DNA of 64,000 nt from Candidatus Nanoarchaeia archaeon (lineage in GTDB: Archaea; Nanobdellota; Nanobdellia; Jingweiarchaeales; Jingweiarchaeaceae), in the NCBI GenBank assembly GCA_038874075.1, contig JAVZDD010000002.1, positions 4,605 to 68,604 of the forward strand, read 5' to 3'. Position 1 is the first letter of the stretch; each line of letters begins with the position of its first letter. The notes under the pieces were generated by a model. The model saw only the letters and a program-made list of their open reading frames with translations. It was not told the origin of the DNA and made no database searches. The position numbers and the translations under genes are program-made. Positions 8,125 through 62,798 of this stretch are shown piece by piece.

Positions 8125-8526
8125 ATGAAGTCTCAAGTGGCCATTGAATACATGATATTAATTTCTTTAATTCTACTACTCTTAGTACCTATCTGGATCT
8201 ATCTTATGCTTTCAAGGATACAGCTTCAAGATGATCTTTCAATTTCATACGCCAAAGATGCGGTCAATCGAATAAAAGATGCAGCCGATTTGGTTTACAT
8301 CCAAGGAAGTCCGGCTCGAGTGAAAGTGAATATTTATATTCCAGAAAATGTGCACAGCATAAATTTTACTGATAGGACGATCATCATCAAATTAAGGACA
8401 AGTGCTGGTCTCGTTGACATTCATGCAGAAACATTAGCTAACATTACAGGACAGCTGCCTGTTCAAAGCGGATACTACGAAGTAATTGTTAAATCCGAAG
8501 TGGGTTATGTGAATGTCACGATCTAA
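8125..8526 (+). CDS. Prepilin-like protein (class III signal peptide-like N-terminus)
   Basis: MKS-QVAIEY then about 20 hydrophobic residues; Q at +1 and E at +5 relative to a putative K-S cleavage site; many N-x-S/T sequons. Confidence 0.5.
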   Translation: MKSQVAIEYMILISLILLLLVPIWIYLMLSRIQLQDDLSISYAKDAVNRIKDAADLVYIQGSPARVKVNIYIPENVHSINFTDRTIIIKLRTSAGLVDIHAETLANITGQLPVQSGYYEVIVKSEVGYVNVTI

Positions 8527-8905
8527 GTCTCAAATAATCGCGGAAACGCTTTTTGTATATGCAATCTTATTTGCATTTTCAATGATCATGATAATCTACA
8601 TATTCGATCAAAATACACAAATGTTGGAAGAAAGAAAAAGGGCAGAAGCAAATAGAATTTCTTCAGATATTGTGGATGCAATAAATACAGCTGTGATTGA
8701 GGGTGATGGCTTCTCAATTACCTTCACAACACCACCAGACATATTGGGGACGAACTACACGCTAAACATCGATGATGGGGCATTATTGGTTGAATGGAGC
8801 AATCATACGTTAAGTAAAACAATTCTCACCAAGAATGTGTATGGTACATTAAAAAAAGGCACAAATACTGTGAGAAATGAAAATGGGCAGATTTTTATTG
8901 AATAA
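8513..8905 (+). CDS. Prepilin-like protein (class III signal peptide-like N-terminus)
   Basis: MSRSKS-QIIAETLFVYAILFAF; overlaps upstream gene by 14 nt. Confidence 0.5.
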   Translation: MSRSKSQIIAETLFVYAILFAFSMIMIIYIFDQNTQMLEERKRAEANRISSDIVDAINTAVIEGDGFSITFTTPPDILGTNYTLNIDDGALLVEWSNHTLSKTILTKNVYGTLKKGTNTVRNENGQIFIE

Positions 8906-9410
8906 AAAAGCACAAGTATTATCTGCTGATTTAGTGGTAAGCATTTTCATATTCACAATTATCATCTCTTTGTTTTTTATTTTTTGGAGAAATGTATATA
9001 ACAACCTGACAATGCAGGAAAAGTTTTTAGAATTACAATATTCGGCAATAAGAATCTCAAATATGCTCGTGAAGACAACCGGTTATCCAAGCAATTGGAA
9101 TTCAACCAATGTTGTTCAGATTGGGCTTGCATCAGAGGCAAATGTACTCTCAATTGAAAAGTTAAGAGTTTTCTTGGATATTAATTACGCTGAAATCAAG
9201 AGAATAATGAAAATAAGTGAGGATTTTAGGGTAAGAGTGAAATACAGAAATGGTAGTACGATTTTGGATAATCTTGGCTTGCCATTAGAAAAGGGATTGG
9301 AACCATCTCCAAGCGCCAAGATAATCGTTCCCATAGAAAGACCATGTCTATTAAAATTAGAAAATGTAACTGTAATTTGTATCTTTGAGTTTAAGTTGTG
9401 GTCAACATGA
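8877..9410 (+). CDS. Prepilin-like protein (class III signal peptide-like N-terminus)
   Basis: MKMGRFLLNKKA-QVLSADLVVSIFIFTII; overlaps upstream gene by 29 nt. Confidence 0.45.
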   Translation: MKMGRFLLNKKAQVLSADLVVSIFIFTIIISLFFIFWRNVYNNLTMQEKFLELQYSAIRISNMLVKTTGYPSNWNSTNVVQIGLASEANVLSIEKLRVFLDINYAEIKRIMKISEDFRVRVKYRNGSTILDNLGLPLEKGLEPSPSAKIIVPIERPCLLKLENVTVICIFEFKLWST

Positions 9411-12175
9411 AAAAAGGTTTTGTAATTCCACTTGATATGACAATCGCGATTATCATATTACTATTTACCTCAACCATATTCACATTCTTTCAGTATGGGC
9501 TTGAGACACCGGGAATAATCTATGAGCTTTCATATCAAAGGGCTGAAGATACGCTCACGATCTTGCAAAAAACAAAGATTGCTTATGTAACAGATGATCC
9601 CGTCGTAACACAATACATCAATCAAGGGATGATCACAGAAGAAGACATGAATAAAACGATATTGGACTTGATTGGTACATTTTGGTCCGAGGGAAAGGTT
9701 GATTTGGCCGTCAATTTATCAAAGAGTATTTTTGATTCACTATTACCACCAGAAGTTGGTTACGAAATTGTAATAGGGAACGACACTATTTATAGTCGAC
9801 CAGGTGTATTGGGTAGTATTTTCAGAGTGAGGACAGTTGTCTCTGGTTTCAAAACCGGAGAAGCACCACTAGGTTGCATCGCAAGCGCCTACATAGAAAA
9901 AATTAAAGGAAAACGAACCGCATCTTACTATTACTTTGGTGGTTTTACTGGTCAGGGAAATTTAACCTTTTATATTTATGATATTCCAAGCGATGCAATC
10001 ATAGAAAGCATCTATCTAGAACTCAGCACCGTGGCAAATGCCACTTTATACATAAATGGAAATTTTTGTCAATCATTAAATAAGAAATATCCAAATTACA
10101 CCGTTGAAAATTGGACAATATTTGATCAAAATTGCATCAATAACATCAGCAAGGGAGTGGCAAACCTATTCACCATTAACTTCTCTTCCCCAGTTACGAG
10201 TGCATACATTGGTGGCGGTTACATAAAGATCACGTATGATACTGCACAGATGAATGTTCCTCTGGGCAATGTGATGCAATACAACTTCACAGGAATTTCT
10301 GGTGTTATCAACCTGTATGATTCATTTTATATTCCAGGAAATTTAACATCGATGGAGATGCATTTGGAATTTTTAAGTAACTATTCAACTTTTTTCAATA
10401 TTGGTAACAAAACAATTTTTGAGAATAATGGAAGTAATACTACACAAATCATTGATTTCAATGATTCGTATCTATCACAAATTTTGAATTACAGTGAGAT
10501 AAGCTTGGAAACAATTCCATTGCGCTTCGGTATGAAGGCATTTAACATCACGATTCAACAGAATGCTGATGTCATTTTGATCACAGATTTATCTGGAAGT
10601 ATGGATTGGAGATTAGATAGCGAAAATACAGGAATAGCCAGAAATTGTACTGATCCTTTATTGAATAGTTCAAATACAAAAAGAATAAGCTTAGCAAAAT
10701 GTTTGGACAAGGAATTCGTTGATATCATATTAAATACTTCTGGAAATAGGGTTGGATTGGTTGGATTTTATAGTGACAATTCACCACCATACAAAGGAAG
10801 AACAATCATTCACGATTTATCCGATAATAAGACAAGCTTATACAATGCAATCGACAGCTATTTTATCCAGGGTGGAACATGTATCTGCTGTGGTATAAAC
10901 AGGGCTTATAACATTTTGAGTGCGCAGAGCAATGCATCAAGGAAAAAATTCATCGTTGTAATGTCAGATGGAATACCAACACACCAATGTGGCTCAAGTG
11001 GTACAGATGAGTGTCAAGGGATTAGAGATGGTTCTCCGGCAAATGAGGGTTTGTGGTTAGGTTGGGGGGCCGGATGTTATGGTGGAGGAGACGATTGTAA
11101 TACGACCGATTGCTTGTGTGCGATGCAAAATGCGAATTGGTCTTCATGCAGGTCATACAATAATTTGAATGCGACCGTATATTCAATTGGATTCGGACCT
11201 GTTGCAAGCTGTTGGAGTGCAAATTGGACATTGAGATCAATTGCTGATTGTGGACATGGCAGTTACTATGCAAGCAGCGATGCAGATGAACTCAAACAAA
11301 TTTACAGAAGTATCGCAGAATCGATCTTGAATGCATCTTACACCACACAATTGATAGAGGTAACAAATGTAACAAACACAATATTATATCCATCTTCTTA
11401 CATTAAATTTAATTACACACCCATTGTACCGCAATATGGTTACTCTGAAATATCTATAAAAGGTGATACAAAACCTTTCAGCGGTTGCAATGGAAGTTTT
11501 TTTGTTCCAGGTCAATTACAAATTGATGACGTTCAAGTTACATCTTACTCATTTGATTATTGGACGGATAAAATATTTGTGAATAATAGCATTACAAATG
11601 GTAGTTTGATCAATGTCTTTAATCTTTCAAAGTTTGGTAGTGATTATAAAAAACTTGGTGATCCATATGCGATCAAATTTCCAGCTTACTTCATTGGATC
11701 AAACGAGACTAATTACATTAACATTCTGCTTGCCCTGAGTCCGACAAATCAAAGCACAAATTGTTCAGCTGGTGATAGGGTCATTTACACTGGTAGAATT
11801 AGAACACCAATTATCTACTCAAATGTCCTACCATTTTGCAAAGGAAGCAATGTGAGCGTTTGCTTTGATAAAGATCACGATGGCTATGCAGATGGTTGTT
11901 CATACATTGCAATCGGTAAAAATCTTCCGAATTTCAATGCCACACCAAAAACCGTGGAGGATTTGAATCCAAATGAAAACGCAGTAGATCAAGTTTTCCT
12001 ACAACTTTTAGATGCATTAAACTTTGTTACAATACCAGCGAACACTGGTAGATCAGGAAATTTCACGAATCCGATTGACATAGAACTCGTTTCGGAACTG
12101 AATTTTGATACTGTTGATACAGCAAACGTACCATCTCTTTGGCAACCCGTATCAATTGAGGTGAGAATTTCATGA
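9407..12175 (+). CDS. Large prepilin-like surface protein with von Willebrand factor A domain
   Basis: MKKG-FVIPLD N-terminus plus hydrophobic helix; MIDAS motif DLSGSMD, GGT and VVMSDG motifs (vWA), Cys-rich insert, very high N-x-S/T density. Track start 9398 is GTG; ATG 9407 overlaps upstream stop (ATGA). Confidence 0.65.
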   Translation: MKKGFVIPLDMTIAIIILLFTSTIFTFFQYGLETPGIIYELSYQRAEDTLTILQKTKIAYVTDDPVVTQYINQGMITEEDMNKTILDLIGTFWSEGKVDLAVNLSKSIFDSLLPPEVGYEIVIGNDTIYSRPGVLGSIFRVRTVVSGFKTGEAPLGCIASAYIEKIKGKRTASYYYFGGFTGQGNLTFYIYDIPSDAIIESIYLELSTVANATLYINGNFCQSLNKKYPNYTVENWTIFDQNCINNISKGVANLFTINFSSPVTSAYIGGGYIKITYDTAQMNVPLGNVMQYNFTGISGVINLYDSFYIPGNLTSMEMHLEFLSNYSTFFNIGNKTIFENNGSNTTQIIDFNDSYLSQILNYSEISLETIPLRFGMKAFNITIQQNADVILITDLSGSMDWRLDSENTGIARNCTDPLLNSSNTKRISLAKCLDKEFVDIILNTSGNRVGLVGFYSDNSPPYKGRTIIHDLSDNKTSLYNAIDSYFIQGGTCICCGINRAYNILSAQSNASRKKFIVVMSDGIPTHQCGSSGTDECQGIRDGSPANEGLWLGWGAGCYGGGDDCNTTDCLCAMQNANWSSCRSYNNLNATVYSIGFGPVASCWSANWTLRSIADCGHGSYYASSDADELKQIYRSIAESILNASYTTQLIEVTNVTNTILYPSSYIKFNYTPIVPQYGYSEISIKGDTKPFSGCNGSFFVPGQLQIDDVQVTSYSFDYWTDKIFVNNSITNGSLINVFNLSKFGSDYKKLGDPYAIKFPAYFIGSNETNYINILLALSPTNQSTNCSAGDRVIYTGRIRTPIIYSNVLPFCKGSNVSVCFDKDHDGYADGCSYIAIGKNLPNFNATPKTVEDLNPNENAVDQVFLQLLDALNFVTIPANTGRSGNFTNPIDIELVSELNFDTVDTANVPSLWQPVSIEVRIS

Positions 12176-13407
12176 AAAGAGGCATAAGTTTCAGCATCAT
12201 CACATTCTTGTTTCTGATACCAATACTCACGTTCATAATCACATACTCAGAATCAATGCAATCAATCAGGAGGGAAAGCATAAAAAAGATTCTATCTGAT
12301 CAAAATATCTTCTTTTCTAAAACTTTGCTTAATGACCTAGAGAAAATGATATGGATAACGGGGAAACGAGCGATAATTTCAGCAATACAAAGAGTGATTA
12401 AGTATGGTACACCACTGAACGATTCCATTTCCGTTATAAAAGAGCTGATGCAAAACGGTACGATTTTTGGTGTAAATGAAACCCTAATGCAAAACAACAC
12501 AATCGGTTACTGGATAAACTTAATCCAATTGGAACAAAATGTATCTGCTTTCAATTTTTCAATCGCTTATTCAAATTTAGAGGTTGATTGGGAATCATTT
12601 AATTGCATTTTTAATGTTTCATTCTCAATTAATGTTTCTGACATTTCAAATACAACCAGGTCCACGAGGATTGGAAATATCTCAATTCTTGTTTCAATCG
12701 AAAAGATGGAAGATCCGATTTATCCACTATACACGAATGGATTGTTTAGAAAAAGTATAAAAATTTGTAATTCAACACTTCCCGAGGTTCGTAGTTTGGC
12801 TTTTGGTACAATCGCGAGTAAAAATGTCACAGGTATATCAGTCATTGGCCTCTCATCAAATTTAACTTACATTCAATCAATTCAAAACAAATCAGATAAA
12901 ATACTCGTCACAGATAACCTGACGATCATAGGTTCTGCCTTAATAAATGCATTTAAAGGAGTCGTTGCGGATCATAGCGATTTACCAGCAGGTATTACAG
13001 TACCATATATCATAAACACAACAAATGCAACAACATCCATACCAGACGCACGTTTAATATATTTGGACGAAATCACGAAGAAAGTTTGGGACATTGAAAA
13101 ATTTGAAGATACAATAAATACTGGTTGTTACCATATTTCATTGAATGGTTCAAACATTTTTGGTAGGTTAGAGGGAAAATTGAATTCTACGGGGAATAAA
13201 TCAGGCATTGAAAGTTTCGTTGATGTTAGAAAATTAATTTCAATGGATATACCAGTGAAAGAAAACCAAACACTTATTGATTATCTCTATTTTAGTAACA
13301 ACTCTCATCCAGGATGTAAAGTAAGGGGCATCAATGAAACGTGGTTTAGAATTGATCCCTGGAATGCTGAAAGATACGGAGTAGGAGAGATTTTAGATTG
13401 TAGTTAG
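12172..13407 (+). CDS. Membrane-anchored extracellular protein, last gene of the prepilin-like operon
   Basis: MKRGISFSIITFLFLIPILTFII N-terminus; SD GAGGTGAG upstream; start overlaps upstream stop; many sequons. Confidence 0.5.
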   Translation: MKRGISFSIITFLFLIPILTFIITYSESMQSIRRESIKKILSDQNIFFSKTLLNDLEKMIWITGKRAIISAIQRVIKYGTPLNDSISVIKELMQNGTIFGVNETLMQNNTIGYWINLIQLEQNVSAFNFSIAYSNLEVDWESFNCIFNVSFSINVSDISNTTRSTRIGNISILVSIEKMEDPIYPLYTNGLFRKSIKICNSTLPEVRSLAFGTIASKNVTGISVIGLSSNLTYIQSIQNKSDKILVTDNLTIIGSALINAFKGVVADHSDLPAGITVPYIINTTNATTSIPDARLIYLDEITKKVWDIEKFEDTINTGCYHISLNGSNIFGRLEGKLNSTGNKSGIESFVDVRKLISMDIPVKENQTLIDYLYFSNNSHPGCKVRGINETWFRIDPWNAERYGVGEILDCS

Positions 13408-17676: not shown

Positions 17677-18990
17677 CTATTCTTCTTCAGAAATCGCAAT
17701 TGGTTCTTCTCCACCATGCCAACTTGTTCTTGGTCTTACTTGGATTGGATATATCCTTTCTTGAGTGTCATCAAGCGCGATCGCAGCACCCTTCAATCTT
17801 GGTAATTCTGAAATATATCTTTCAAGTGCGTATGGCAAATAACTCTGCATGATGTTGTTTAGTGCATTTATGTCTTCCTTTGATGTTACTCGGTGGGAAA
17901 TTACCAGATCACACTGAGAAATCACATCCCCGCTTAATTTACCTGGCTGTTGCGATGCTAACACAAGTGAAACTCCAGGTTGCCTACCTTCCCTGATCAC
18001 TTGTACGAGTGCATCAGTGGCTAATGTCTTTCCTTTTGCTGGAATAAATTCATGAGCCTCGTCTAGAAAAATCCAAACAAGAGGTACTTCTTTTTTTGCT
18101 TGCTCCTTGTATCTCTTTCCAAAAGCTGTGAATCCACCCTCTATCTCACTCAATTCCTCAATCTTTCTAGCGATTGTTCTGTGTTCTAATATTTTTTTTG
18201 TTATAATTCCTATTACGAGTGCTCTCAGGTTAAATCCACCCATTACCTGAGTATAATAAGAAATATCAAGTACTGTGATCTTACCCCTTTCCAACAAATT
18301 ATCCACTTTCGTCCCTTCCTTTTCAAAGAGACCCCATTCCTTGATCATGTCTAATTTATTTATCAATGCTAGTTTTGTTTGGTTATCAGCCTTTTCATCA
18401 GCTTCGACTGCTTGTATCACTTCATCAATACCAAATGCACCTTGTTTTTTCATCTTAGTTATTACTCGTTCAACCAATATGCCAATTGGGTCCGTTGACT
18501 CAACACCCATCAGAACACACCAATCTGATGGATTGAGCTCTGAAGTAGCAATCGAAAAAGGTCTGTCCACAGGCACATTTTGTGCCCTAAGTTTCTCAAA
18601 GAAACCATATGGTACATACACGATACATCTATCCGAGTAGTCCTTTGCTTCGAGCCCCCATTGCTCAAGTAATTTAAAATCTCTTCTATTTGGAAACTTT
18701 AATGTCCAATATATTCCCATCGTATCAAGAATAAGAGATGCAATGTTCTCTGATACTTCTGGAGGTAGGTTTGTCATTCCCTCTGCAATTACACCCATCG
18801 TGTAGCTCTTACCTTCACCTCTTTTTCCAGCAATTAATATCACATGTGGCCTGGATACATCAAGAAGCACCGGGTTAGCCAAGCTCTTTACCTTTTCCAT
18901 TGTTACATAATGTTTTGCCAAGAAAATAGTGCCTTTCGTGCCGTATTTATCCAAGTCTTTTTGTCTTCTACCCAAGATTATTTCATACAT
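17677..18990 (-). CDS. HerA/FtsK-superfamily P-loop ATPase (DUF87-like)
   Basis: Walker A HVILIAGKRGEGKSYT and Walker B VWIFLDEAHEFIP (hhhhDEAH type). Confidence 0.5.
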   Translation of the reverse strand: MYEIILGRRQKDLDKYGTKGTIFLAKHYVTMEKVKSLANPVLLDVSRPHVILIAGKRGEGKSYTMGVIAEGMTNLPPEVSENIASLILDTMGIYWTLKFPNRRDFKLLEQWGLEAKDYSDRCIVYVPYGFFEKLRAQNVPVDRPFSIATSELNPSDWCVLMGVESTDPIGILVERVITKMKKQGAFGIDEVIQAVEADEKADNQTKLALINKLDMIKEWGLFEKEGTKVDNLLERGKITVLDISYYTQVMGGFNLRALVIGIITKKILEHRTIARKIEELSEIEGGFTAFGKRYKEQAKKEVPLVWIFLDEAHEFIPAKGKTLATDALVQVIREGRQPGVSLVLASQQPGKLSGDVISQCDLVISHRVTSKEDINALNNIMQSYLPYALERYISELPRLKGAAIALDDTQERIYPIQVRPRTSWHGGEEPIAISEEE

Positions 18991-25050: not shown

Positions 25051-25173
25051 GCGGGGGTAGCGAAGCTAGGTCCAACGCGCAGGACTTAAGTTTAATTACT
25101 TAAGTGATGAGGTCACAATGATATGAAATCCTGTGGCTTAGTGCCCGCGTGGGTTCAAATCCCACCCCCCGCA
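25051..25173 (+). tRNA. tRNA-Leu (anticodon TAA) with about 37-nt intron
   Basis: Acceptor GCGGGGG/CCCCCGC, discriminator A, long variable arm, T-arm GTGGG-TTCAAAT-CCCAC; anticodon stem CAGGA...TCCTG interrupted by about 37 nt (25091-25127 if at canonical 37/38 site). Confidence 0.65.
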
Positions 25174-28235: not shown

Positions 28236-28324
28236 TGCCTGGGGTGGGATTTGAACCCACGATTGCAGCGTATCTTAGCAAAGCTCATGAGCGCTGCGTT
28301 CTAGCCAGACTAAACTACCCAGGC
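28236..28324 (-). tRNA. tRNA-Met/Ile2 (anticodon CAT) with about 14-nt intron
   Basis: Reverse complement: acceptor GCCTGGG/CCCAGGC, anticodon stem CAGCG...CGCTG with loop CTCATG + 14-nt insert, T-arm GTGGG-TTCAAAT-CCCAC, discriminator A. Track ORF 28244..28459(+) is spurious. Confidence 0.65.
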
Positions 28325-41294: not shown

Positions 41295-41675
41295 TCATCT
41301 CAATTCTTTTTCCAATTTACTTTCACAATCAAAACAATATTCTGTTTCCCTATTTGTTGTGACTTCCTTCTTACAACTTTTACATATAATTTTGTGTAAG
41401 AGCGAATCTTTCTTTTCCGACCTAACATATGATGTTTCTCTAGGTGGGAATATAATCGCATCGTTTGGACATAGATTTTCACAAGAAGAACAACCGTAGA
41501 TACAATTCAATGGATTTGCAACATAAGCTTTATTGTCCCTTATTTCTAGAACATTGTGTGGACAAAAGTTTACACATCTATAAGTACCCCCACAACCATC
41601 ACACTTATCAAGATATATGATTGGAAACCATGCTTGTTTACTCATTTTTTGTGAATTGATTAAAGCATTATTCAT
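41295..41675 (-). CDS. 4Fe-4S ferredoxin-domain protein with C-terminal zinc ribbon
   Basis: CDGCGGTYRCVNFCP and CIYGCSSCENLCP cluster motifs; C-terminal CKSC...CFDC. Confidence 0.65.
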   Translation of the reverse strand: MNNALINSQKMSKQAWFPIIYLDKCDGCGGTYRCVNFCPHNVLEIRDNKAYVANPLNCIYGCSSCENLCPNDAIIFPPRETSYVRSEKKDSLLHKIICKSCKKEVTTNRETEYCFDCESKLEKELR

Positions 41676-41684
41676 TTTAAAATT

Positions 41685-42692
41685 TTAATATCTCCAAGTA
41701 TCAACGTAAATGTAAGGTAAGGATAAAATTTCTTTTGGAACTTTGGCGTAAAAATTCGCTAAAAGCGCATTTTTATAATCCGGTGGTTCAATCTGTAAAA
41801 ATTTCCGACCCTCCTCCCAGAAATAATCATCAAGGTAATAAGGATCGATTCCTGAAACCTTAGAAACAATCTCAAAGCATCTTTTACATCTAAGTCTTAG
41901 TTCCAATTCCTCATCAAGATCTAAGAATTCCCTTCTCCTCACTTTATCAATTAACTCGTCTGACAAGATTGAAATCATTCCTGATTTTATTGCCACATTT
42001 TGCAGATGGTAGTCAATGGGTGGCGTCTTGTTTTCAGGATCTTCAAATTTCCATAAACCTCTCCTCTCCATCACTTTTGCCAAGAGATTTGCTTTTTTGA
42101 ATAGTGGTTTATCAGCATAACCTATGAACACTTCAAACCTTTGTAACAGTCCTCCTTTGTTTAAAGATGGTTCATCTATTTCATTTTCCAGAAGCTTATG
42201 TCCACTTTCTTCATAAATTTCATTTACACTTCTTTTTCTGTTGTTTAAAAGTTGACTTCCAAAAAATCTAGTTAAATATAACCTGTGCTTTCCTTTATCA
42301 TAGATTGGGATTTTTCCTGTATCATCTGCCAACCATTGAATATAATCTTCATCCTTAAGATTCGCGAGGTTATTCGGAGAAAAGAAATCAGGATTTTTAT
42401 TTAACATCTCAATTGATTTTTGCCAGAGATAAGATGCTCCTTTCACCAATTGACCATTTATCAGCCCATAATCCAATGAAATTGAACCGTCCCTATTCTT
42501 CTCCCAAAAATGGTGATCTATGTTTATCACAGCACCATAGAAATTTGAGACTAAATCGATTCCTAAACCAAGGGACGGATTTTCCTTTGGATCATTGAAT
42601 TGGTAGTAGAAATCTCTCTTGACTTGAGTAAGGTACTCACCAATCTGTCTGCAAACTTTTTCATTCACGAAAAACAAATCTGGCATTTTCAT
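41685..42692 (-). CDS. Hypothetical protein
   Basis: 335 aa soluble ORF; tightly spaced within the minus-strand cluster. Confidence 0.45.
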   Translation of the reverse strand: MKMPDLFFVNEKVCRQIGEYLTQVKRDFYYQFNDPKENPSLGLGIDLVSNFYGAVINIDHHFWEKNRDGSISLDYGLINGQLVKGASYLWQKSIEMLNKNPDFFSPNNLANLKDEDYIQWLADDTGKIPIYDKGKHRLYLTRFFGSQLLNNRKRSVNEIYEESGHKLLENEIDEPSLNKGGLLQRFEVFIGYADKPLFKKANLLAKVMERRGLWKFEDPENKTPPIDYHLQNVAIKSGMISILSDELIDKVRRREFLDLDEELELRLRCKRCFEIVSKVSGIDPYYLDDYFWEEGRKFLQIEPPDYKNALLANFYAKVPKEILSLPYIYVDTWRY

Positions 42693-42735
42693 TACTTAAA
42701 AATAGTGATTTATATTCTTTGTGATGAGAAATGTT

Positions 42736-43182
42736 TTATTCAGAATGTATAGTCCTGTGTGTTTCACATTTATTATTTATACATTTGCACTCAGTTGGCA
42801 AGCAATCAACTAACGGAACACAACTTTTTTGAAGCATATCATAATAAATTTTCATATACCTTGTTGCGTTTACGTTAATATTTACACAAATACCACAGCG
42901 CACATCAATAAGTATGCAATCTTCATCCATTTGGCAATTAAAATCCAATTTCTTGAATTCAATCGATTCTTGCTCCATCAACTCATCACATCCTTCTTGA
43001 CCAACCAAAGATAAATTTTGAGTAAATTCTTCTGTTTCGTTTCCTATGTTTTTGGTGGTTGTACCTATAGCCTGGATGTAGTAGGCACTGACTACAACAA
43101 TTAAAAATAATATTCCGATCATCAAATAAATTTTCTCCATAACATTAACTGGGAGTTGTAAAATATAAAATCTTTTCCTCAA
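42736..43182 (-). CDS. Small secreted/anchored cysteine-rich protein
   Basis: N-terminal hydrophobic helix (true start may be internal MEKIYLMIG), 10 Cys in C-terminal 90 aa. Confidence 0.4.
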   Translation of the reverse strand: MRKRFYILQLPVNVMEKIYLMIGILFLIVVVSAYYIQAIGTTTKNIGNETEEFTQNLSLVGQEGCDELMEQESIEFKKLDFNCQMDEDCILIDVRCGICVNINVNATRYMKIYYDMLQKSCVPLVDCLPTECKCINNKCETHRTIHSE

Positions 43183-43192
43183 ATATATCGAA

Positions 43193-43972
43193 TTACCGAT
43201 AAAAATCTTGCAATTTCTTCATTTGACCAAACACAGGTGTTAGTATGTAACCATTTTGCATGTTTCCTAAAACTTCACATTTCTCCGGATAATACCAGAC
43301 ATAATAAGCAATGTAAGCGCAGAATATCGCATCCAGTAAATCTTCGTATTCCTTCAGTGCATTGCCCTTCAATTTCTCGACATTTTTTTCTAGCACCTCA
43401 CTCGGTAAGAACATCCTTGGGTTTGCTTTCTCTAAACTTTTCAAGCAATTCTGGTACTTCCTGAATTCTCTGTATCTGAACTTGTAATCTCTCTTTGGCT
43501 TTGCTTTGTATTGAATGATTTTTTTAAGGTTAAATATAACAACCATCGAAGGATGTGGATAAACCTCAAAAAATTTTCTCGTCCTTTCAAATTTTTTTAT
43601 ACGTGGATCATGTCTGAACCCATATTTTTCCAATAACCTTGAAATTTCCTCCCCTCTAACCTTACCATCCCACTGGCTCAATCTCTTCCTATTTGTAGGA
43701 TGCGCTCCAGCATCGTATTCTCTAAATAATAAACCAACAAGCTTCTCAGCGATTCTTCTACCTTCTTTATTTGGAACGATCAATGGTGCATCAATTGCAA
43801 TCAAAGCATTTTCCTTTCCAACTTTTTCATTGATATAACCAACAATTTCCATATCAGTACTCAAATTTGTCTTAAAATCGATGAGCTCAGCCTTCTCTTC
43901 ATCTCCTTTCGATATTGCAACTGCGGTTCCGTTCTTCGGTGACCACGCTAGATCAACACCGACGAAGAGCAT
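43193..43972 (-). CDS. DUF429-like protein (predicted RNase H-fold nuclease)
   Basis: N-terminal GVDLAWS...AIDAPL pattern characteristic of DUF429. Confidence 0.5.
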   Translation of the reverse strand: MLFVGVDLAWSPKNGTAVAISKGDEEKAELIDFKTNLSTDMEIVGYINEKVGKENALIAIDAPLIVPNKEGRRIAEKLVGLLFREYDAGAHPTNRKRLSQWDGKVRGEEISRLLEKYGFRHDPRIKKFERTRKFFEVYPHPSMVVIFNLKKIIQYKAKPKRDYKFRYREFRKYQNCLKSLEKANPRMFLPSEVLEKNVEKLKGNALKEYEDLLDAIFCAYIAYYVWYYPEKCEVLGNMQNGYILTPVFGQMKKLQDFYR

Positions 43973-44014
43973 AATTAGTTATAGGTTCCATTGCTTAAAT
44001 AAATTTGTAGAACA

Positions 44015-45139
44015 CTATCTCCTTGGAGGTATGCTGATTGGTCTTATATGCTTGATTTCTCTTCTTCTTGCCTCATCGTAAGATTCAATGATTTCCCTCG
44101 TTTCTCTTGGTGATCTATATGTGAATTCGGCATATTCTTCCAAAAAGTTACGAGAGCCACTTCTCAATTCCTGGAGAAAAATTTCTGTAATCCAATTTTC
44201 ACCAATCTTTAAATTTTCACCGTCAGTGAGCAAACCATCCAATGTCCTGTTGTCGACTATTTCACCCAAGAAATCTGCAGTTACATTCACATTTCTGAAA
44301 AATTTTTCATACCTCCCATCAATCCTTCCAATCAATTTAGCAAGATTTTCTGGTTCTGCCCACTTTGGCAAGTCTGATTCACCATTAACAAATTCAATAT
44401 TGTGATATCCATTAAGATTCCAAAAATCTGACATCCTGATGTTCGTTGTAAAAAATCTTTTAACTTGTGCAAGTGCACCATCTACCCACGAATACATTAA
44501 TGGTTCAATTTTATCTATTCTCTTTTGAATTTCCCTTGGTATTTTGAGAACGAGAGCATGTGGTGTGTGTGGTAAACCATTTTCCAACATTAGATTCTCA
44601 TTCACGACTTCCTCGTTTAGTGCGTCATCCAAACTAACTGCACCCAAAGGGGTTCCATTCATGTATTCTATTCTTGTTATGTGCGCATCAGTAATTAAAA
44701 AGCGTCCTTTATTCATAATTCCAATCATTTCTAGATTGCCGGTACCCTTGCAGTTGAGGATATTGAAGTAATATTTAACCCCATGATATTCAGTCTCAAA
44801 AGTTGGTATGATAATATCGGAAGTTCTGCCACCATTGTACATCATTAACAATTCTTCATTTTGTTTAACTGTGTGTGGGTCAAGGTAAATACTCGGTATC
44901 CAAAGGCTGAAAAGGAGTTTTTGTAGTGATTTGTTTGCTTTACTTAAAATCCAATCATTTTTCCAAACGATGTCTTGCTCATCCTCTATTGGCAAAAGCG
45001 TGATCCTAATGAATTCGTTTGGTATGCGAACGATTGTATTGTCAACTATCTTGTAAAGTGGTTTTGATTTGCGATCTTTTGATTTCGAAGGATATCTAGG
45101 TAACATATTACTACTTAATAGTGAATAATTTAAAAACAT
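44015..45139 (-). CDS. Hypothetical protein
   Basis: 374 aa ORF; start overlaps stop of upstream NDT-like gene (translational coupling). Confidence 0.45.
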   Translation of the reverse strand: MFLNYSLLSSNMLPRYPSKSKDRKSKPLYKIVDNTIVRIPNEFIRITLLPIEDEQDIVWKNDWILSKANKSLQKLLFSLWIPSIYLDPHTVKQNEELLMMYNGGRTSDIIIPTFETEYHGVKYYFNILNCKGTGNLEMIGIMNKGRFLITDAHITRIEYMNGTPLGAVSLDDALNEEVVNENLMLENGLPHTPHALVLKIPREIQKRIDKIEPLMYSWVDGALAQVKRFFTTNIRMSDFWNLNGYHNIEFVNGESDLPKWAEPENLAKLIGRIDGRYEKFFRNVNVTADFLGEIVDNRTLDGLLTDGENLKIGENWITEIFLQELRSGSRNFLEEYAEFTYRSPRETREIIESYDEARRREIKHIRPISIPPRR

Positions 45140-45519
45140 TTCTGTTTCTTCTTATGTTTTGAATCAAGCGCGAGAAGCACGTTCTTGAAACTTTTTCTTG
45201 GTGTTGGTTTAATCCTGTCTTTATTTATCAGAATGATTGGTTTGTTTGCCATGAATGCCATACCAAGGTCAAATCTACTACCTTCACTTTCATCATCCCA
45301 ATAAACATGAACCTCATCAGCCTCCATAACCGCTTTTTTATTTGCTGAACAGATCCTTATTCCAATTGGATCGTCCTGCTTTGTATCTCTAGGTGGATAA
45401 TAAACCTTGTGACCATTGGACTCTAGTTTGGAAACATATTCTTCCAGCTCTTTAATCTCACATTCCTTGGCTCCCCTTACTGGACATATAATAAATATTT
45501 TTTTTCTTTTAACTGGCAT
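45130..45519 (-). CDS. Nucleoside 2-deoxyribosyltransferase-like (NDT/DNPH1 superfamily) protein
   Basis: IFIICPVRG N-terminal and HVYWDDESEGSRFDLGMAFMANKPIILI motifs resembling the NDT fold. Confidence 0.45.
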   Translation of the reverse strand: MPVKRKKIFIICPVRGAKECEIKELEEYVSKLESNGHKVYYPPRDTKQDDPIGIRICSANKKAVMEADEVHVYWDDESEGSRFDLGMAFMANKPIILINKDRIKPTPRKSFKNVLLALDSKHKKKQKCF

Positions 45520-45582
45520 ACAATTGATGAAATAAATCTAAAGTTTTATATCTTTTGGATTTTTATAATAAATTGATCAAAA

Positions 45583-45791: not shown

Positions 45792-46367
45792 ATGAACTAT
45801 AGAAAACACTCAAGCATTGCAGGAAGGAATGAAAGCATCCTTTTGATCATTGATGTTCAAGATAAGCTTTATGATAAGATTGTTGAAAAAGAGAAGCTAC
45901 TTTCAAACATAAAAAAACTTGTTAGTGTTGCAAAAATACTTGGCATCCCAATCATAGTTACTGAGCAAGAAAGGCTTGGGGATACAATTGAACTGTTAAA
46001 GAAAGTTTTAGGAAATGATTATTCTTCGATAAAAAAAATCAGTTTTAGTTGTATGGATAATGAAGAGTTTAGAAAAAAGATTAAGGAGCTTTGTAAGAAA
46101 CGATTTTACAATACATTCATTGTCGTCGGGATAGAAGCACATATATGTGTTGAGCAAACAGCGCTTGATTTATTGGCGAATGATTATAAAGTTCACGTGG
46201 TTAAAGATGCAATCTCCTCAAGAAGGAAAGAAGATGTTGAAACGGCGATAAGTAAGATGGAAAAGAACGGTATTATTGTTACGAGTACTGAGATGGTCAT
46301 ATATGAGCTATTGGGAAGCGCTGGGAACGAAGATTTCAAGAAAGTTTTAAAAATAATCAAATCATGA
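45792..46367 (+). CDS. Isochorismatase-family cysteine hydrolase
   Basis: ILLIIDVQ and VVGIEAHICVEQTALD (catalytic Cys) motifs. Confidence 0.7.
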   Translation: MNYRKHSSIAGRNESILLIIDVQDKLYDKIVEKEKLLSNIKKLVSVAKILGIPIIVTEQERLGDTIELLKKVLGNDYSSIKKISFSCMDNEEFRKKIKELCKKRFYNTFIVVGIEAHICVEQTALDLLANDYKVHVVKDAISSRRKEDVETAISKMEKNGIIVTSTEMVIYELLGSAGNEDFKKVLKIIKS

Positions 46368-56156: not shown

Positions 56157-56891
56157 ATGCTGAAGAAAAAAATGAAGATTTTGAGAGAGTATTTAAGACC
56201 TGACTCAAAAAAAATAATTTTAGCATCAATTTTGACGGTATTAATACCTTGTTTATATAACTACATAATAAACTTTTCTCAATTGCAAAATTTTCCATAT
56301 TTTCCAATAAGACCAATAAACGCGATCATCATATGGTTGTTTTTTTATTTTATTGCACATAAAGAAAAATTAAGGTGGAGTAAAATAGTGCAGATCTTCA
56401 TTTTTACCATAATCGCTATTTTTTGGATGGCCATCTTCAAAAATGCAAACTCTTTTCATATGGAAAACTTTGTACTGTTTTTCCTACTGGCTGCACCTTT
56501 TGTTTTTTCAACAATTATTACTTACCTCGTTCTAAAGGAGCGTAAAAAGATTGGATTCCAAAGAATTGGTATAGCCGCTGGCGGAGTATTAAGTCTATTC
56601 TTTTCAAGTCTACTTTGGATTGTTAGTATTCTGTTCTATAATTTTTTTATTGACAAAGCATGGCTCATCATTTCATTACCATTGGTGTTCTTCCTAATTG
56701 CATTATTCTTTGGTTCTGTTTATGGTTGGCTTTACAAAAAATATTTATACAAAAGGAGAGAAATAAAGAGTATATCACGCGCCATGCTTAACATCCTTCT
56801 CTGGCTTGTGCTTTTGCTAATTCCTTGGATTTTTGATTACTTAATAAAAGTTTATCATTTAGAAAAGAAATTATCTAGGGAAGTTGGATGA
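56157..56891 (+). CDS. Polytopic membrane protein
   Basis: 244 aa with about six hydrophobic helices; overlaps start of downstream radical SAM gene. Confidence 0.45.
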   Translation: MLKKKMKILREYLRPDSKKIILASILTVLIPCLYNYIINFSQLQNFPYFPIRPINAIIIWLFFYFIAHKEKLRWSKIVQIFIFTIIAIFWMAIFKNANSFHMENFVLFFLLAAPFVFSTIITYLVLKERKKIGFQRIGIAAGGVLSLFFSSLLWIVSILFYNFFIDKAWLIISLPLVFFLIALFFGSVYGWLYKKYLYKRREIKSISRAMLNILLWLVLLLIPWIFDYLIKVYHLEKKLSREVG

Positions 56892-58336
56892 AGGTATTAT
56901 TCCTTGCGAAGAACATTGAATATGAAGGTCCAATCGGGATTATGTATCTGTCAGCAATTTTAAAGCAACATGGACATGAAACAAAATTAATTGAAACAGA
57001 AAGTGGTAATTTGTGTGAGCAAATCGAACACTTTTCCCCTGACCTAATTGCCTATAGCGTAACAACCGGTTTGCATAAGTATTATTTAAAATTGAATAGG
57101 AAGATAAAAAGTAAATTCAAAATCACATCAGTATTTGGTGGTCCTCACCCAACATATTTTCCTGAAATGATAAAGGAGGAAGGGGTCGATGTGATTTGCA
57201 TTGGAGAGGGTGAACTTGCATTCGCAGAACTTGCAGACAAGATGGAAAAAGGCGAAGATATCACAAGAATTAAGAACTTGTGGGTCAAAAAGAACAATAA
57301 AATTTTCAAGAATAGTGTGAGACCCTTAATTGCCGATCTAGATGCGATTCCATTCGCAGATAGAGAACTTTTGTATGAATTCAATCCAAAATTTAAGAGT
57401 TATCCAATCACATTTTTTCTTGCAAGCAGAGGTTGCCCTTATGCTTGTCCTTATTGTTTCAATCCAACACTCGCAAAGCTATACAAAAACAAAGGTTGGA
57501 AGATCAGAAGGAGAAGTGTTGATAATTTAATTGAAGAAATTGAATTAGTTAGAAGGAAGCAGGCACTTCAGTTTATCCAATTTGTGGATAGTATTTTCAT
57601 CACAGATGAAAAATGGCTTGAAGAATTCACTGAAAAATACTCGAAAAAAATTGGAATTCCTTTTTATTGTCATGTAAGAGCAAATTTAGTGAATTGGAAA
57701 GTCGTGAAATTATTAAAAAAAGCCAATTGTGCAAGTGTTGGAATGGGTATTGAGTGCGGAGATGATAAAATCAGGAACAAAGTACTCAGGAGAAATATGA
57801 GTAAGAAACAGATAATAGATGCGTGTAAATTAATTAAAAAAGCTGGAATAAGGATATCATCACAAAACATGTTCGGTCTACCTGGTGGCTCCATCGAATC
57901 TGACATTGAAACAATAAAATTAAACATTCAATGTGGGGTCGACTATCCGGTAATTATGCTTTGGCAACCATATCCAAGAACAGAGCTTGCAGAGTATGCG
58001 ATTCAGAATGGATATTTTGATGGTGATTATGAAAGGATAGATTTCAGCTACTACTCTAATTCTGTAATCAAATTCAAAAAGGGTGAAAAGGAAAAAATTG
58101 AAAATTTACAAAAATTGGGTGCAATTGCAGTTGAGGCACCATTCCTATTACCAGTTATTTTGAAACTAATAAAATTACCAAAAAATACATTTTTTGACTC
58201 TATCTTCAGGGCATGGTACAGTTATTGCTGTGAAACAAGAATTACCCCCCATCAACTTTCATTTGAAGAGATGATACAAAAAATAAGACCATTGTTTGGG
58301 TTGCATCACATAAAAGGAGGTAAATTGGATGTCTAA
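56888..58336 (+). CDS. B12-binding domain radical SAM protein
   Basis: N-terminal B12-binding-like region (IMYLSAILKQHGHE), radical-SAM CxxxCxxC (SRGCPYACPYC). Confidence 0.65.
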   Translation: MKVLFLAKNIEYEGPIGIMYLSAILKQHGHETKLIETESGNLCEQIEHFSPDLIAYSVTTGLHKYYLKLNRKIKSKFKITSVFGGPHPTYFPEMIKEEGVDVICIGEGELAFAELADKMEKGEDITRIKNLWVKKNNKIFKNSVRPLIADLDAIPFADRELLYEFNPKFKSYPITFFLASRGCPYACPYCFNPTLAKLYKNKGWKIRRRSVDNLIEEIELVRRKQALQFIQFVDSIFITDEKWLEEFTEKYSKKIGIPFYCHVRANLVNWKVVKLLKKANCASVGMGIECGDDKIRNKVLRRNMSKKQIIDACKLIKKAGIRISSQNMFGLPGGSIESDIETIKLNIQCGVDYPVIMLWQPYPRTELAEYAIQNGYFDGDYERIDFSYYSNSVIKFKKGEKEKIENLQKLGAIAVEAPFLLPVILKLIKLPKNTFFDSIFRAWYSYCCETRITPHQLSFEEMIQKIRPLFGLHHIKGGKLDV

Positions 58337-59496: not shown

Positions 59497-61002
59497 ATGA
59501 TGGATAAAGAAAAGATAATTTTGGATGCATATTTCAAGGATAGAAGCATTATCATTCACAACATCGAATCATTTAACAAGTTCATTGACAAGGGAATGCA
59601 AAGAGTTGTTGATGAAATTGGTGGGATCTCTTCTGATATTCTTCCAGAAGATATTCAAAGCTTGAAGATAAAGTTTGGTAAAATCACAGTAGAAAAACCA
59701 CACACACAAGAAGCAGAAGGCATCGCTGAAGAAATAACACCGATGCAAGCAAGATTGAGAAACATCACATATGAATCACCAATAATTTTGGAAATGGTGA
59801 TGGAGAAAGATGGTGTAGAGATAGAGAGAAACAACATACGCATTGGTAGTATACCTATTATGTTAAAATCAAAATATTGTGTGTTGAACGGAAAAACGGA
59901 GGAAGAGTTGATTGAATACGGTGAAGATCCAAATGACCCTGGTGGTTACTTTATCATAAATGGTACTGAAAGGATTATTGTCATTATTGAAGACCTAGCA
60001 CCGAATAAAGTCTTTACTGAGACAGATAAGACGGGCCCATTCCCAACAATTGCAAAAATATTCTCAGAAGACACACAATATAGAATTCCTCATGTGCTTG
60101 AGAGATCTAAGGACGGGATTATATACGTAAGTTTTGCAAGAGCAAATAAAGTACCATTTGCGATTTTGATGAAAGCGCTCGGGATCACAAATGAGAAAGC
60201 AATTGTGAGCGCAGTTTCTGATGATGAAAAACTTTTCAGTGACTTGTATATCAATCTTTATGAAACAAGTGAAATAAAGAGTGAGGAAGATGCGCTTGAT
60301 TTCATTGGAAGAAAACTTGGTGTTACATACTCAAAACCAAAAAGAGTTGAAAGAGCATGTGAAGTAATAGATAAATTCCTTTTCCCTCACATAGGTCATT
60401 CAGAATATGATCGACTTCCAAAGGCTTATTTCCTTGCAAAAACAATTAAGAAATTATTGCTTGTCTCCCAGGGAGTATTTCCAGAAGATGACAAGGATCA
60501 TTATTCAAATAAAAGATTAAGGCTCTGTGGAGACATGCTAGAAACATTGTTCAGGTTCTCCTTCAGAATGCTCGTCGGAGACATGAAATATAATTTAGAG
60601 AGATTATTAAAAAGAGGAAGACTTCCAACACTCCAAGCAATAACTAGAGCGCAATTATTAACATCAAGAATAAGAAGTGCATTGGCAACTGGAGAATGGA
60701 TTGGTGAAAGACATGGTATAAGTCAGCACATTGACCGATTGAATCATTTTGCCACGCTTTCACATCTAAGAAGAGTTGTTTCCTTACTCACCGCAAGTAG
60801 AGAAAATTTCGAAGCAAGAGATTTGCACCCAACGCAATGGGGAAGACTTTGTTCTCATGAAAGTCCAGAAGGTCCTGGCATTGGATTAAGAAAAAATCTT
60901 GCAATCACATGTGAGATTTCGACCGAATGTAGCATAAGCGATGAAGAATTGATTCAGCAGTTAAAAAATTTTGGTTTGAATGAGATTGGTGGGAAAAAAT
61001 GA
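59497..61002 (+). CDS. rpoB2: DNA-directed RNA polymerase subunit B'' (N-terminal half of split Rpo2)
   Basis: 501 aa with conserved RpoB N-terminal blocks (GGYFIINGTERIIV, HLRRV); start overlaps following gene. Confidence 0.9.
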   Translation: MMDKEKIILDAYFKDRSIIIHNIESFNKFIDKGMQRVVDEIGGISSDILPEDIQSLKIKFGKITVEKPHTQEAEGIAEEITPMQARLRNITYESPIILEMVMEKDGVEIERNNIRIGSIPIMLKSKYCVLNGKTEEELIEYGEDPNDPGGYFIINGTERIIVIIEDLAPNKVFTETDKTGPFPTIAKIFSEDTQYRIPHVLERSKDGIIYVSFARANKVPFAILMKALGITNEKAIVSAVSDDEKLFSDLYINLYETSEIKSEEDALDFIGRKLGVTYSKPKRVERACEVIDKFLFPHIGHSEYDRLPKAYFLAKTIKKLLLVSQGVFPEDDKDHYSNKRLRLCGDMLETLFRFSFRMLVGDMKYNLERLLKRGRLPTLQAITRAQLLTSRIRSALATGEWIGERHGISQHIDRLNHFATLSHLRRVVSLLTASRENFEARDLHPTQWGRLCSHESPEGPGIGLRKNLAITCEISTECSISDEELIQQLKNFGLNEIGGKK

Positions 61003-62798
61003 GTGATGTTTTTTTAAATGGTAAGTTTGTTGGAGAAGTAAAAGAACCAGAAAAGTTTGTTCAGAAAATAAGAGAAAACAGGAGAAACGGTGTCTTACCA
61101 AATGAAATAAATGTTTCTTACCATGAAGAGCGAGATGAAGTTTACATAAGCACCGAAAAGGGGAGAGCAAGGAGACCGCTTATTGTTGTTGAAAATGGAA
61201 AGCCAAAATTAACAAAGGAGCACCTTGAAAAATTACAAAAAGGAGAGATCAGATGGTCTGACTTGGTTAAGGAAGGCGTGATTGAATATTTGGATGCAGA
61301 TGAGGAGGAAAATTGTTATATTGCAATTAACGAAAATGAATTGACAAAGGAACATACTCATCTTGAAATTTCACCGCTTGTAATCCTTGGTTCTCAAGCA
61401 GCGATGATACCCTACGCTGAGCACAATCTAAGTGTAAGGATCCTCATTGGTGCTAAAGTAATAAAGCAAAGTTTGGGTATATATGCTGCAAATTTCTTAC
61501 TTAGAATGGATACTGATTCCTCAATTTTACACTACCCGCAACGTCCGATTGTTAAGACAAAAATCTATGACACAATAAATTATGATTCGCATCCAGCAGC
61601 TCAGAATATTGTTGTAGCAATCATGTCTTTTGAAGGATATAACATGGAAGATGCGATTATTATGAATAAAGCAAGTATAGAAAGGGGTCTTTACAGATCG
61701 ACATACTATAGACCATACAAAACAGAAGAACTAAGATACTCTGGTGGTCAAGTAGACAAGATAAAAATCCCTGAAAAGGATATCAAAGGCTATAGAACAG
61801 AAGAGGCATATCGTTATTTGGAAGAAGATGGTATTATATATCCCGAGGCAGAAGTGAAGGCTGGGGATGTATTGATTGGAAAAACATCACCACCAAGATT
61901 TTTAACCAGTTTAGAGGAATTCAAAGTAGGTCTGGAATCAAGAAGAGAGACATCCGTGCCTGTGAGACACGGTGAAAAAGGCATCGTTGAAAGTGTTATA
62001 TTGACGGAAAGCGAAGAAGGAAATAGATTTGTAAAGGTAAAAGTGAGAGATTTAAGAGTACCTGAACTTGGTGATAAGTTTGCAAATAGACACGGACAAA
62101 AAGGGGTTGTTGGCTTGATCGTACCTCAGGAGGACATGCCTTTTTCTGCTTCTGGTGTGATTCCCGATATCATTTTCTCACCACATTCAATTCCATCAAG
62201 GATGACTGTGGGACACTTGATTGAATTAATTGGTGGAAAAGTTGGAGCACTGGGTGGAAAGTACATTGATGGTACTGCGTGGAGTGGGCAAGATGAATTC
62301 GAATTGAGAAAGCAGCTCAAGCAACTTGGATTTAGGGAAGATGGAAGTGAAACACTTTATGACGGTGCAACTGGCAAGAAATACAAAGCGAGGATATTCA
62401 TTGGAGAAATGTATTATTCCAAACTTAGACACATGGTTGCAAATAAGATACATGCAAGATCAAGAGGTCCTGTCCAACTTTTAACGAGACAGCCAACTGA
62501 AGGCAGAAGTAAGGAGGGAGGTCTCAGGTTAGGAGAAATGGAAAAAGATTGTTTTGTTGCGCATGGTGCAAGTTTACTCCTAAAAGAAAGATTTGATTCT
62601 GATAAGACGGTTGTACCAATCTGTAAGAAATGTGGCTTAGTCGCAATCTACAATAAGTACCGAGACAAAGGAAGATGTCCTGTTTGTGGTGAAGATGCTC
62701 CAATTGTTTTCATCGAAATGAGTTATGCATTCAAATTGCTGTTAGATGAACTGAAAAGCTTGTGTATTTATCCAAAATTGATTGTGAGGTTTAAATAG
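60999..62798 (+). CDS. rpoB1: DNA-directed RNA polymerase subunit B' (C-terminal half of split Rpo2)
   Basis: 599 aa with RpoB C-terminal blocks (NRHGQKGV, GEMEKDCFVAHGA) and C-terminal zinc ribbon CKKCG...CPVCG. Confidence 0.9.
   Translation: MSDVFLNGKFVGEVKEPEKFVQKIRENRRNGVLPNEINVSYHEERDEVYISTEKGRARRPLIVVENGKPKLTKEHLEKLQKGEIRWSDLVKEGVIEYLDADEEENCYIAINENELTKEHTHLEISPLVILGSQAAMIPYAEHNLSVRILIGAKVIKQSLGIYAANFLLRMDTDSSILHYPQRPIVKTKIYDTINYDSHPAAQNIVVAIMSFEGYNMEDAIIMNKASIERGLYRSTYYRPYKTEELRYSGGQVDKIKIPEKDIKGYRTEEAYRYLEEDGIIYPEAEVKAGDVLIGKTSPPRFLTSLEEFKVGLESRRETSVPVRHGEKGIVESVILTESEEGNRFVKVKVRDLRVPELGDKFANRHGQKGVVGLIVPQEDMPFSASGVIPDIIFSPHSIPSRMTVGHLIELIGGKVGALGGKYIDGTAWSGQDEFELRKQLKQLGFREDGSETLYDGATGKKYKARIFIGEMYYSKLRHMVANKIHARSRGPVQLLTRQPTEGRSKEGGLRLGEMEKDCFVAHGASLLLKERFDSDKTVVPICKKCGLVAIYNKYRDKGRCPVCGEDAPIVFIEMSYAFKLLLDELKSLCIYPKLIVRFK

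Follow-up and report, generated by a model that had tools for sequence, protein, structure and literature searches.

A Qng1-like, predicted N-glycosidase in a lineage-specific gene string of a DPANN archaeon and its possible contribution to nucleotide scavenging

To our knowledge, Qng1 has so far been characterized only in eukaryotes and a few bacteria, as an enzyme that releases queuine. The enzymes of Sphaerobacter thermophilus and human (Qng1/QNG1; PDB 7U07, 7UK3, 7U91, and 7UGK) are queuosine-5′-monophosphate N-glycosylases/hydrolases in which the carboxylate of the C-terminal Tyr completes and closes the active site, and human cells have been reported to need a kinase, still unidentified, upstream of QNG1 (PMC9881137). 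DUF429 proteins (COG2410/COG4328/COG4923) constitute a mostly single-domain family in clade D of the RNase H-like superfamily, for which no function has been assigned (Majorek et al., 2014; PMC3985635). Homologs of both families are encoded in a string of six minus-strand genes at positions 41295–45519 of a 64-kb stretch of DNA (64,000 nucleotides (nt); contig JAVZDD010000002.1, positions 4,605–68,604), hereafter the window, from the compact genome of Candidatus Jingweiarchaeum tengchongense, a thermophilic DPANN archaeon. This organism is reported to rely on nucleotide salvage, with a complete adenosine monophosphate (AMP)/type III RuBisCO pathway and a partial pentose-phosphate pathway (PMC10134863).

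The fifth gene of the string (41685–42692) encodes a protein of 335 amino acids (aa) that had been listed as unknown in a preliminary description of this DNA. Profile searches and structure prediction place it instead in an archaeal subfamily of Qng1/DUF2419-like proteins, which are predicted N-glycosidases with a helix-hairpin-helix (HhH) fold. The Pfam model Q_salvage (PF10343) scored 21.6 bits on this protein (cut-off 25) and is carried by eight of its 11 homologs, and a search of the solved Qng1 structures with the family profile matched the S. thermophilus enzyme StQng1 (7U07) with an E-value of 1.5e-6. In a Foldseek comparison of its AlphaFold2 model (predicted local distance difference test (pLDDT) 88.5; predicted template modeling score (pTM) 0.89) with the PDB, the best 11 matches were all Qng1/QNG1 structures (template modeling (TM) score 0.70–0.76, E-value about 1e-9), and the next fold was that of the DNA glycosylase AGOG (TM score 0.48).

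The functional residues of Qng1 described in the structural study of the enzyme (PMC9881137) were mapped onto all full-length archaeal members, down to 31% identity. The catalytic Asp (D231 of Qng1) is kept as D227 and is invariant save for an Asn in one lineage, and the HhH Lys (K199) is invariant in the archaeal family. The ribose-pocket residues F75 and Y232 are kept as F62 and Y228, E267 is kept as E262, and the guanine-recognizing D298 and the stacking W302 correspond to D288 and W292, both of which are invariant. The protein-terminal Tyr is also retained (Y323 as Y335), and every full-length member terminates with T-x-R-Y. By contrast, the queuine-specific pocket is replaced (Y93 by A86, W94 by S/T87, and W299 by an invariant D289), as is the proton relay, in which D69 is exchanged for I/V56 and N72 for an invariant D59, and the D207 loop is missing. 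These pocket and relay replacements are conserved across the archaeal family, and the phosphate contacts K233 and Q306 correspond to an invariant His and an invariant Arg. Because the catalytic core is kept while the queuine pocket is replaced, and because the replacements are themselves conserved, the 335-aa protein is a distant Qng1/DUF2419 homolog that belongs to a distinct, conserved archaeal branch. A literature search found no paper on archaeal Qng1 homologs, and a scan of species-representative genomes with Qng1-like patterns yielded no confirmed relative.

By analogy with Qng1, from which we infer the substrate, the predicted activity of the 335-aa protein is most likely the hydrolysis of the N-glycosidic bond of a guanine-type 5′-mononucleotide other than queuosine monophosphate; the nucleotide N-glycosidase step as such is a well-supported prediction. 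The ligand in the closed pocket of the enzyme would be a guanine-type nucleoside 5′-monophosphate, perhaps of the 7-deazaguanine type; the base would be held by D288 and W292, the ribose by K199 and the C-terminal carboxylate of Y335, and the phosphate possibly by H229, R296, and K200. The nucleotide would then be split into a free base and ribose-5-phosphate; the base would be salvaged, and the sugar phosphate could be passed to the pentose-phosphate and AMP/RuBisCO routes. The lineage in which Asn takes the place of the catalytic Asp comprises two copies (L007, 8001–9029, P0016; L009, 8001–9008, P0015), which read PPINYH in place of PPIDYH and keep the other conserved residues. D231N is reportedly the inactivating mutant that was used in Qng1 crystallography. 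Since this exchange inactivates Qng1, the Asn-bearing copies may be non-catalytic binding proteins or may employ another mechanism.

On balance, we incline to the view that this string of six genes is lineage-specific and probably co-transcribed, and that it takes part in nucleotide scavenging. This view gains support from the Qng1-like assignment and from the reported reliance of the organism on nucleotide salvage. The 374-aa protein (a possible kinase-like enzyme using adenosine triphosphate (ATP)), the predicted RNase H-fold DUF429 nuclease, and the NDT/DNPH1-like protein encoded upstream plausibly serve the same scavenging economy, although the only ground for linking them with the glycosidase is gene adjacency within a single small clade. 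The nucleoside/nucleobase salvage proposed in the preliminary description thus survives as a role for a predicted N-glycosidase in a salvage-based organism, but not as the task of a dedicated, conserved operon.

The 374-aa protein (44015–45139, minus strand) represents a very rare family without a Pfam model. Pfam scans of all 21 family members and PDB sequence searches with profiles of the family gave no match, and the AlphaFold2 model of the window protein is of low confidence, with a weak protein-kinase-like fold signal. This protein, another former unknown for which profile searches and structure prediction had been recommended, is therefore without a sequence-family match, and that weak signal suggests only that it is possibly a protein-kinase-like, ATP-using enzyme. 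Its distant homologs are solitary and lie in unrelated contexts. One of them (P0026, about 21% identity; L113, 3548–6501) is followed by an uncharacterized 264-aa gene and then by two isochorismatase-family genes; the idea that the 264-aa gene is a cryptic DUF429 was rejected (hhalign probability 0.2%). An isochorismatase-family gene also lies just upstream of the cluster in the window (45792–46367) and in two related loci (L004 and L114), a recurrence near 374-aa homologs that may be a coincidence.

The gene downstream of it (43193–43972, minus strand) encodes a 259-aa predicted RNase H-fold nuclease. PF04250 matched this protein with 66.8 bits against a cut-off of 23, and 16 diverse members all retain the acidic residues D7, D61, D211, and D214, so that its earlier designation as a DUF429 protein of RNase H fold is borne out. 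Homologs with E-values below 1e-10 number 1202, relatives occur in 301 of 185,579 species genomes, and identity is 58–69% across DPANN phyla, Methanomethylicota, Marsarchaeota, and bacteria of the Candidate Phyla Radiation. The family is common and strongly conserved among DPANN archaea. High identity paired with sparse occurrence overall points to very strong constraint or, alternatively, to horizontal transfer. No solved DUF429 structure was found in the PDB comparison, and the literature search found nothing on DUF429 function beyond the RNase H-like superfamily assignment. The roles given here to the DUF429 and 374-aa proteins are putative.

The remaining products are small. The first gene (45130–45519, minus strand) encodes a divergent 129-aa protein of the NDT superfamily, on which PF05014 scored 23.6 bits (below the cut-off of 28.8), while the best PDB sequence matches were NDTs at an E-value of 0.025 and the PHROG NDT families matched with an E-value of 2e-4. 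The nucleophilic Glu of NDTs (VELGMA) is aligned to an Asp (FDLGMA). The NDT/DNPH1-superfamily call is marginal, with a score under the Pfam threshold and an exchanged nucleophile. The closest relatives found are encoded by two IMG/VR contigs of 169 and 223 kb (42–46% identity; L111, 6004–6354, and L112, 6001–6336), which carry the motifs KKIFIICPVR and FDxGMAF, again with Asp for Glu; in L111 the gene lies a few genes downstream of a gene for a large unannotated protein of about 454 aa. The fourth gene (42736–43182, minus strand) encodes a 148-aa membrane-anchored or secreted protein, which has ten Cys residues and a hydrophobic anchor at its N terminus. It is confined to three related genomes, in which it always lies directly upstream of the Qng1-like gene; its homologs in L004 and L014 are 48–52% identical, and searches of Pfam, NCBIfam, PADLOC, and PHROGs found no family match. 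The last gene (41295–41675, minus strand) encodes a 126-aa 2x[4Fe-4S] ferredoxin, as had been proposed: Fer4_7 scored 31.9 bits against a cut-off of 27, and the two cluster motifs CxxCx5Cx3CP and Cx3CxxCx3CP are present. The zinc ribbon ascribed to it is visible as a C-terminal CxxC...CxxC pattern (CKSC...CFDC), but its Pfam match is below the cut-off. Searches of NCBIfam with the six proteins gave no match at or above a model cut-off.

The preliminary description had regarded the six genes as a possible operon whose conservation could be checked in relatives. Among the 301 species genomes with DUF429 relatives, 80 DUF429 loci were examined with 10-kb flanks. Neither tblastn nor profile hidden Markov models detected a homolog of the 374-aa, Qng1-like, NDT-like, or Cys-rich protein in the vicinity of these 80 loci, and in de novo clustering of the neighbors the commonest family occurred in just six of them. 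The recurrent neighbors of DUF429 are housekeeping genes, namely those for PolD subunits, HIT, P-type ATPase, CDC48, and ferrochelatase; a PolD small-subunit gene lies within 5 kb of DUF429 in six loci (among L016–L095) and a large-subunit gene in three. Similarly, none of the other five genes was found within 4 kb in fifteen metagenomic Qng1-like loci or in further such loci. Elsewhere, the Qng1-like gene is accompanied by genes for thymidylate kinase (Tmk; four loci from two lineages), an NT5C-like 5′(3′)-deoxyribonucleotidase, a DUF123 GIY-YIG protein, and a small membrane-anchored DOT1-like methyltransferase. These arrangements occur in DPANN-type contigs (L007, L009, L011, L097, L101, L110, L096, L100, and L098) and hint at (deoxy)nucleotide metabolism.

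Conservation of the locus is confined to close relatives. Two of them (L004 and L005) have the order 369-aa homolog, DUF429, Cys-rich, and Qng1-like gene, flanked by the same isochorismatase and pyrophosphatase genes as in the window. The NDT-like gene is absent from L004, L005, and L114, in which an opposite-strand gene for an Rv2179c-like exonuclease takes its place, and the ferredoxin gene is absent from L004, L005, and L014; in L004 and L014, the Qng1-like gene directly abuts the pyrophosphatase gene. Both genes are accessory, without counterparts in the loci of the closest relatives. What persists is limited to two pairs, 374-DUF429 and Cys-rich-Qng1-like, and these are kept solely in close relatives with syntenic flanks. 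Since the flanking housekeeping genes are equally syntenic (the pyrophosphatase is 92% identical in the relatives), the synteny of the pairs carries little information either way. The six genes are not a conserved dedicated operon: co-conservation is lacking in the 80 DUF429 loci and in the Qng1-like loci, and close relatives keep two pairs. In L114, a close relative from the sample that also yielded L014, the gene for DUF429 (4729–5511) overlaps a DEAD/DEAH-box helicase gene (5508–6377) by 4 nt, a nuclease-helicase pairing; this helicase has no counterpart in the window.

The physical arrangement of the genes is as had been described. All six minus-strand open reading frames are present, and with the longest reading frames the spacings of −10, 42, 10, 43, and 9 nt were reproduced; the choice of start codon changes two of these five values. 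Homologs of the 374-aa protein start at window residue 28, whose codon, ctt, is an impossible start, and the start is therefore M1 (an overlap of 10 nt) or M12 (a gap of 23 nt). Homologs of the Cys-rich protein start at window M15, and a start at this codon (43140), which would give a protein of about 134 aa and a gap of 52 nt instead of 10 nt, is likely. In the public annotation, the six genes have consecutive accessions and are labeled hypothetical, DUF429, or 4Fe-4S. The tightness of the cluster is real, but it is ordinary for this window: the coding share of the window is 92.6%, neighboring genes on the same strand are separated by a median of 11.5 nt, 35 of the 44 gaps of this kind do not exceed 50 nt, and other tight runs comprise six genes at 7610–13407 and five genes at 59020–64001. 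Packing of this kind is unexceptional for the genome, and the guanine-cytosine (GC) content of the cluster (0.34–0.345) equals the window average.

An A/T-rich intergenic region of 63 nt (45520–45582), common to the string and a divergent 68-aa gene, contains TATA-like runs as read directly from the sequence and is likely the promoter region for the string. The gaps of 42 and 43 nt (43973–44014 and 42693–42735) also hold A/T-rich, TATA-like stretches, about 20–30 nt before the starts of the DUF429 and Qng1-like genes, a setting that would permit internal promoters giving rise to leaderless transcripts. These two gaps are also the boundaries that divide the conserved pairs 374-DUF429 and Cys-rich-Qng1-like. 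At the distal end of the string, the stop codons of the ferredoxin gene (ending at 41295) and of the convergent pyrophosphatase gene (ending at 41293) are one base apart, so that there is no space for a terminator between them.

Several of these observations weigh against a scavenging role for the whole string: the Q_salvage score of the 335-aa protein is below threshold; the NDT-like protein lacks the Glu nucleophile of its family; Foldseek found no significant match in the PDB for the 374-aa model, itself of low confidence; the association of Qng1-like genes with Tmk and NT5C is seen in only two or three independent lineages; and functional coupling might reside inside each persisting pair, as kept in three related genomes. 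A serious alternative, which we consider possible but rather unlikely, is that the string is a pure juxtaposition of six unrelated genes, packed in a streamlined genome and without a common role in nucleotide metabolism. This would fit the genome-wide norm of tight, co-oriented packing, the variation of the locus among close relatives, the failure to find conserved partners elsewhere, and the TATA-like stretches in the 42–43-nt gaps before the DUF429 and Qng1-like genes. Against it stands that four of the six products (NDT-like, kinase-like, RNase H-like, and Qng1-like) have folds or belong to families that act on nucleotides or nucleic acids, a share that probably exceeds that expected of six random genes. 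At the other extreme, it is distinctly unlikely that the genes constitute a dedicated operon for salvage of 7-deazaguanines (archaeosine/preQ0), in which the action of DUF429 or other nucleases on host tRNA would yield modified mononucleotides or nucleosides, the kinase-like enzyme of 374 aa would make the 5′-monophosphate, the Qng1-like enzyme would release the archaeosine or preQ0 base for ArcTGT, and the ferredoxin would serve a redox step. The attraction of this scheme is that the catalytic core and guanine face of Qng1 are kept while the queuine-specific residues are replaced, that archaea carry archaeosine rather than queuosine, and that the substituent pocket presents two invariant Asp residues, which would be a good match for a cationic amidinium group. 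Free archaeosine base (G+) has been reported to deamidate to preQ0 (PMC5699537), and the pairing of a kinase with a glycosidase has a precedent, because human QNG1 reportedly needs an upstream kinase. Nevertheless, co-conservation of the genes is lacking, the nearest relatives have neither the ferredoxin nor the NDT-like gene, and no gene for ArcTGT, another TGT, or a preQ0-related function was seen among the scanned open reading frames of the 64-kb window. Moreover, the kinase assignment of the 374-aa protein is weak, and the Tmk and NT5C neighbors elsewhere favor deoxynucleotide metabolism over tRNA bases. In the supplements of the Jingweiarchaeum paper, the sole match to ArcTGT/preQ0 genes was a QueF-like gene in a Parvarchaeum metagenome-assembled genome, which belongs to a different genus. 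It is tempting to speculate that the 335-aa protein is a Qng1 branch re-specialized for archaeosine- or preQ0-5′-monophosphate, with its two invariant pocket Asp residues binding the archaeosine amidinium and the base passing to ArcTGT in a host-dependent DPANN archaeon, and that the 374-aa protein is a new kinase-like enzyme that makes the 5′-monophosphate substrate, as a counterpart of the kinase upstream of human QNG1. We regard this narrower proposal as very improbable; if such a nucleotide were the substrate, the enzyme would define the first salvage route for an archaeal 7-deazaguanine modification.

The preliminary description had also raised a nucleotide-targeting defense module, and its check against defense islands turned up housekeeping flanks, with a candidate model of PADLOC as the sole signal. 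In its developed form, an antiviral module would be built around the DUF429 nuclease, with the NDT-like protein and the glycosidase as effectors that deplete or damage nucleotides. The DUF429 protein matches the PADLOC candidate PDC-S44 (PDLC05019) over its full length with 247 bits and an E-value of 3.7e-74. In line with such a role, its gene overlaps the helicase gene by 4 nt in one close relative, relatives of the NDT-like protein occur on phage and viral contigs, and the patchy distribution and very high cross-phylum identity of DUF429 are compatible with horizontal transfer. PDC-S44 is an unvalidated candidate, however, and the literature search found no paper describing or testing it; the other five proteins are without a PADLOC match. 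The flanks encode MoaA, an ABC transporter, a pyrophosphatase, an isochorismatase, a methyltransferase, an acetyl-CoA synthetase, a sugar nucleotidyltransferase, and ThiI, the neighbors of DUF429 in the 80 genomes are also housekeeping genes, and the cluster shows no GC anomaly in a locus that is syntenic in relatives. Relatives of the DUF429, Qng1-like, and 374-aa proteins were not found in IMG/VR viral contigs. All this makes a defense module the least credible of the explanations considered. Searches of PHROGs matched the NDT-like protein and, weakly in one case, the ferredoxin, but none of the other four proteins, and tblastn of phage genomes with the 374-aa protein found no match. A mobile-element origin was rejected on the grounds of the normal GC content, the synteny of the flanks in related genomes, and the lack of viral relatives of the core genes.

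Elsewhere the window has the content of an ordinary chromosome, with genes for glycogen phosphorylase and an aminotransferase among others. Two genes that overlap by 4 nt (59497–61002 and 60999–62798) encode a split RNA polymerase subunit B, and other genes encode a 925-aa VWA-domain protein (9398–12175), a HerA-like ATPase (17677–18990), and a B12-binding radical SAM protein (56888–58336). Rfam returned two long tRNA matches (25051–25173, 123 nt; 28236–28324, 89 nt), which ARAGORN misses or misreads (anticodon "catg"); both are presumably intron-containing archaeal tRNAs, and as such they speak for the archaeal origin of the DNA.

Scavenging by way of the Qng1-like protein thus remains our preferred reading. 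That this archaeal branch is conserved, retains the catalytic machinery of Qng1, and has a different, invariant substituent pocket points to an unrecognized nucleotide N-glycosidase activity in scavenging DPANN archaea. The lasting value of the locus may lie in this previously unrecognized subfamily and in two well-delimited uncharacterized families, those of the 374-aa protein and of the DPANN DUF429 protein. At a more general level, tight, co-oriented strings in streamlined genomes should not be taken as operons without co-conservation.

Comparison with known systems sets the proteins of the string apart to different degrees. The DUF429 protein agrees with its family as described in being a single-domain protein encoded by a stand-alone gene, and it has no distinguishing features beyond the family. 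The 374-aa protein was compared with the AMPylase SelO, the NIS synthetases AcsD, IucC, and SbnC, and the kinase-fold proteins WaaP, Bud32, APH, and PIP kinases; it has zero detectable sequence similarity to these enzymes, and its motif spacing is unlike that of canonical kinases. About 100 residues of the 129-aa protein align with NDT/DNPH1 proteins (PF05014), including the GxxxxLGMA region, whereas its signature KKIFIICPVR...DEVHV...FDxGMAF, common to the two large viral contigs, marks a subfamily of its own. As for the 335-aa protein, it shares with Qng1 the two-lobe HhH glycosylase fold, the catalytic Asp, the HhH Lys, the ribose pocket, the guanine face, and the terminal Tyr. In contrast to Qng1, to which it is only about 17–18% identical, it has an altered queuine cyclopentenediol pocket and proton relay, with H and R at the phosphate contacts K233 and Q306, and its host is an archaeon, from a domain without known tRNA queuosine. 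Furthermore, archaeal Qng1-like genes elsewhere adjoin Tmk, NT5C, and methyltransferase genes, not TGT or transporter genes. With the HhH DNA glycosylases AGOG, Ogg1, and EndoIII, the 335-aa protein has in common the superfamily fold and the HhH Lys and Asp, as well as a weak match to the Pfam AGOG model (E-value 0.059) and a structural similarity (TM score 0.45–0.48) that is far weaker than that to Qng1. It differs from these DNA glycosylases in its Qng1-type closure by the C-terminal Tyr, a feature that suggests a mononucleotide rather than DNA as the substrate.

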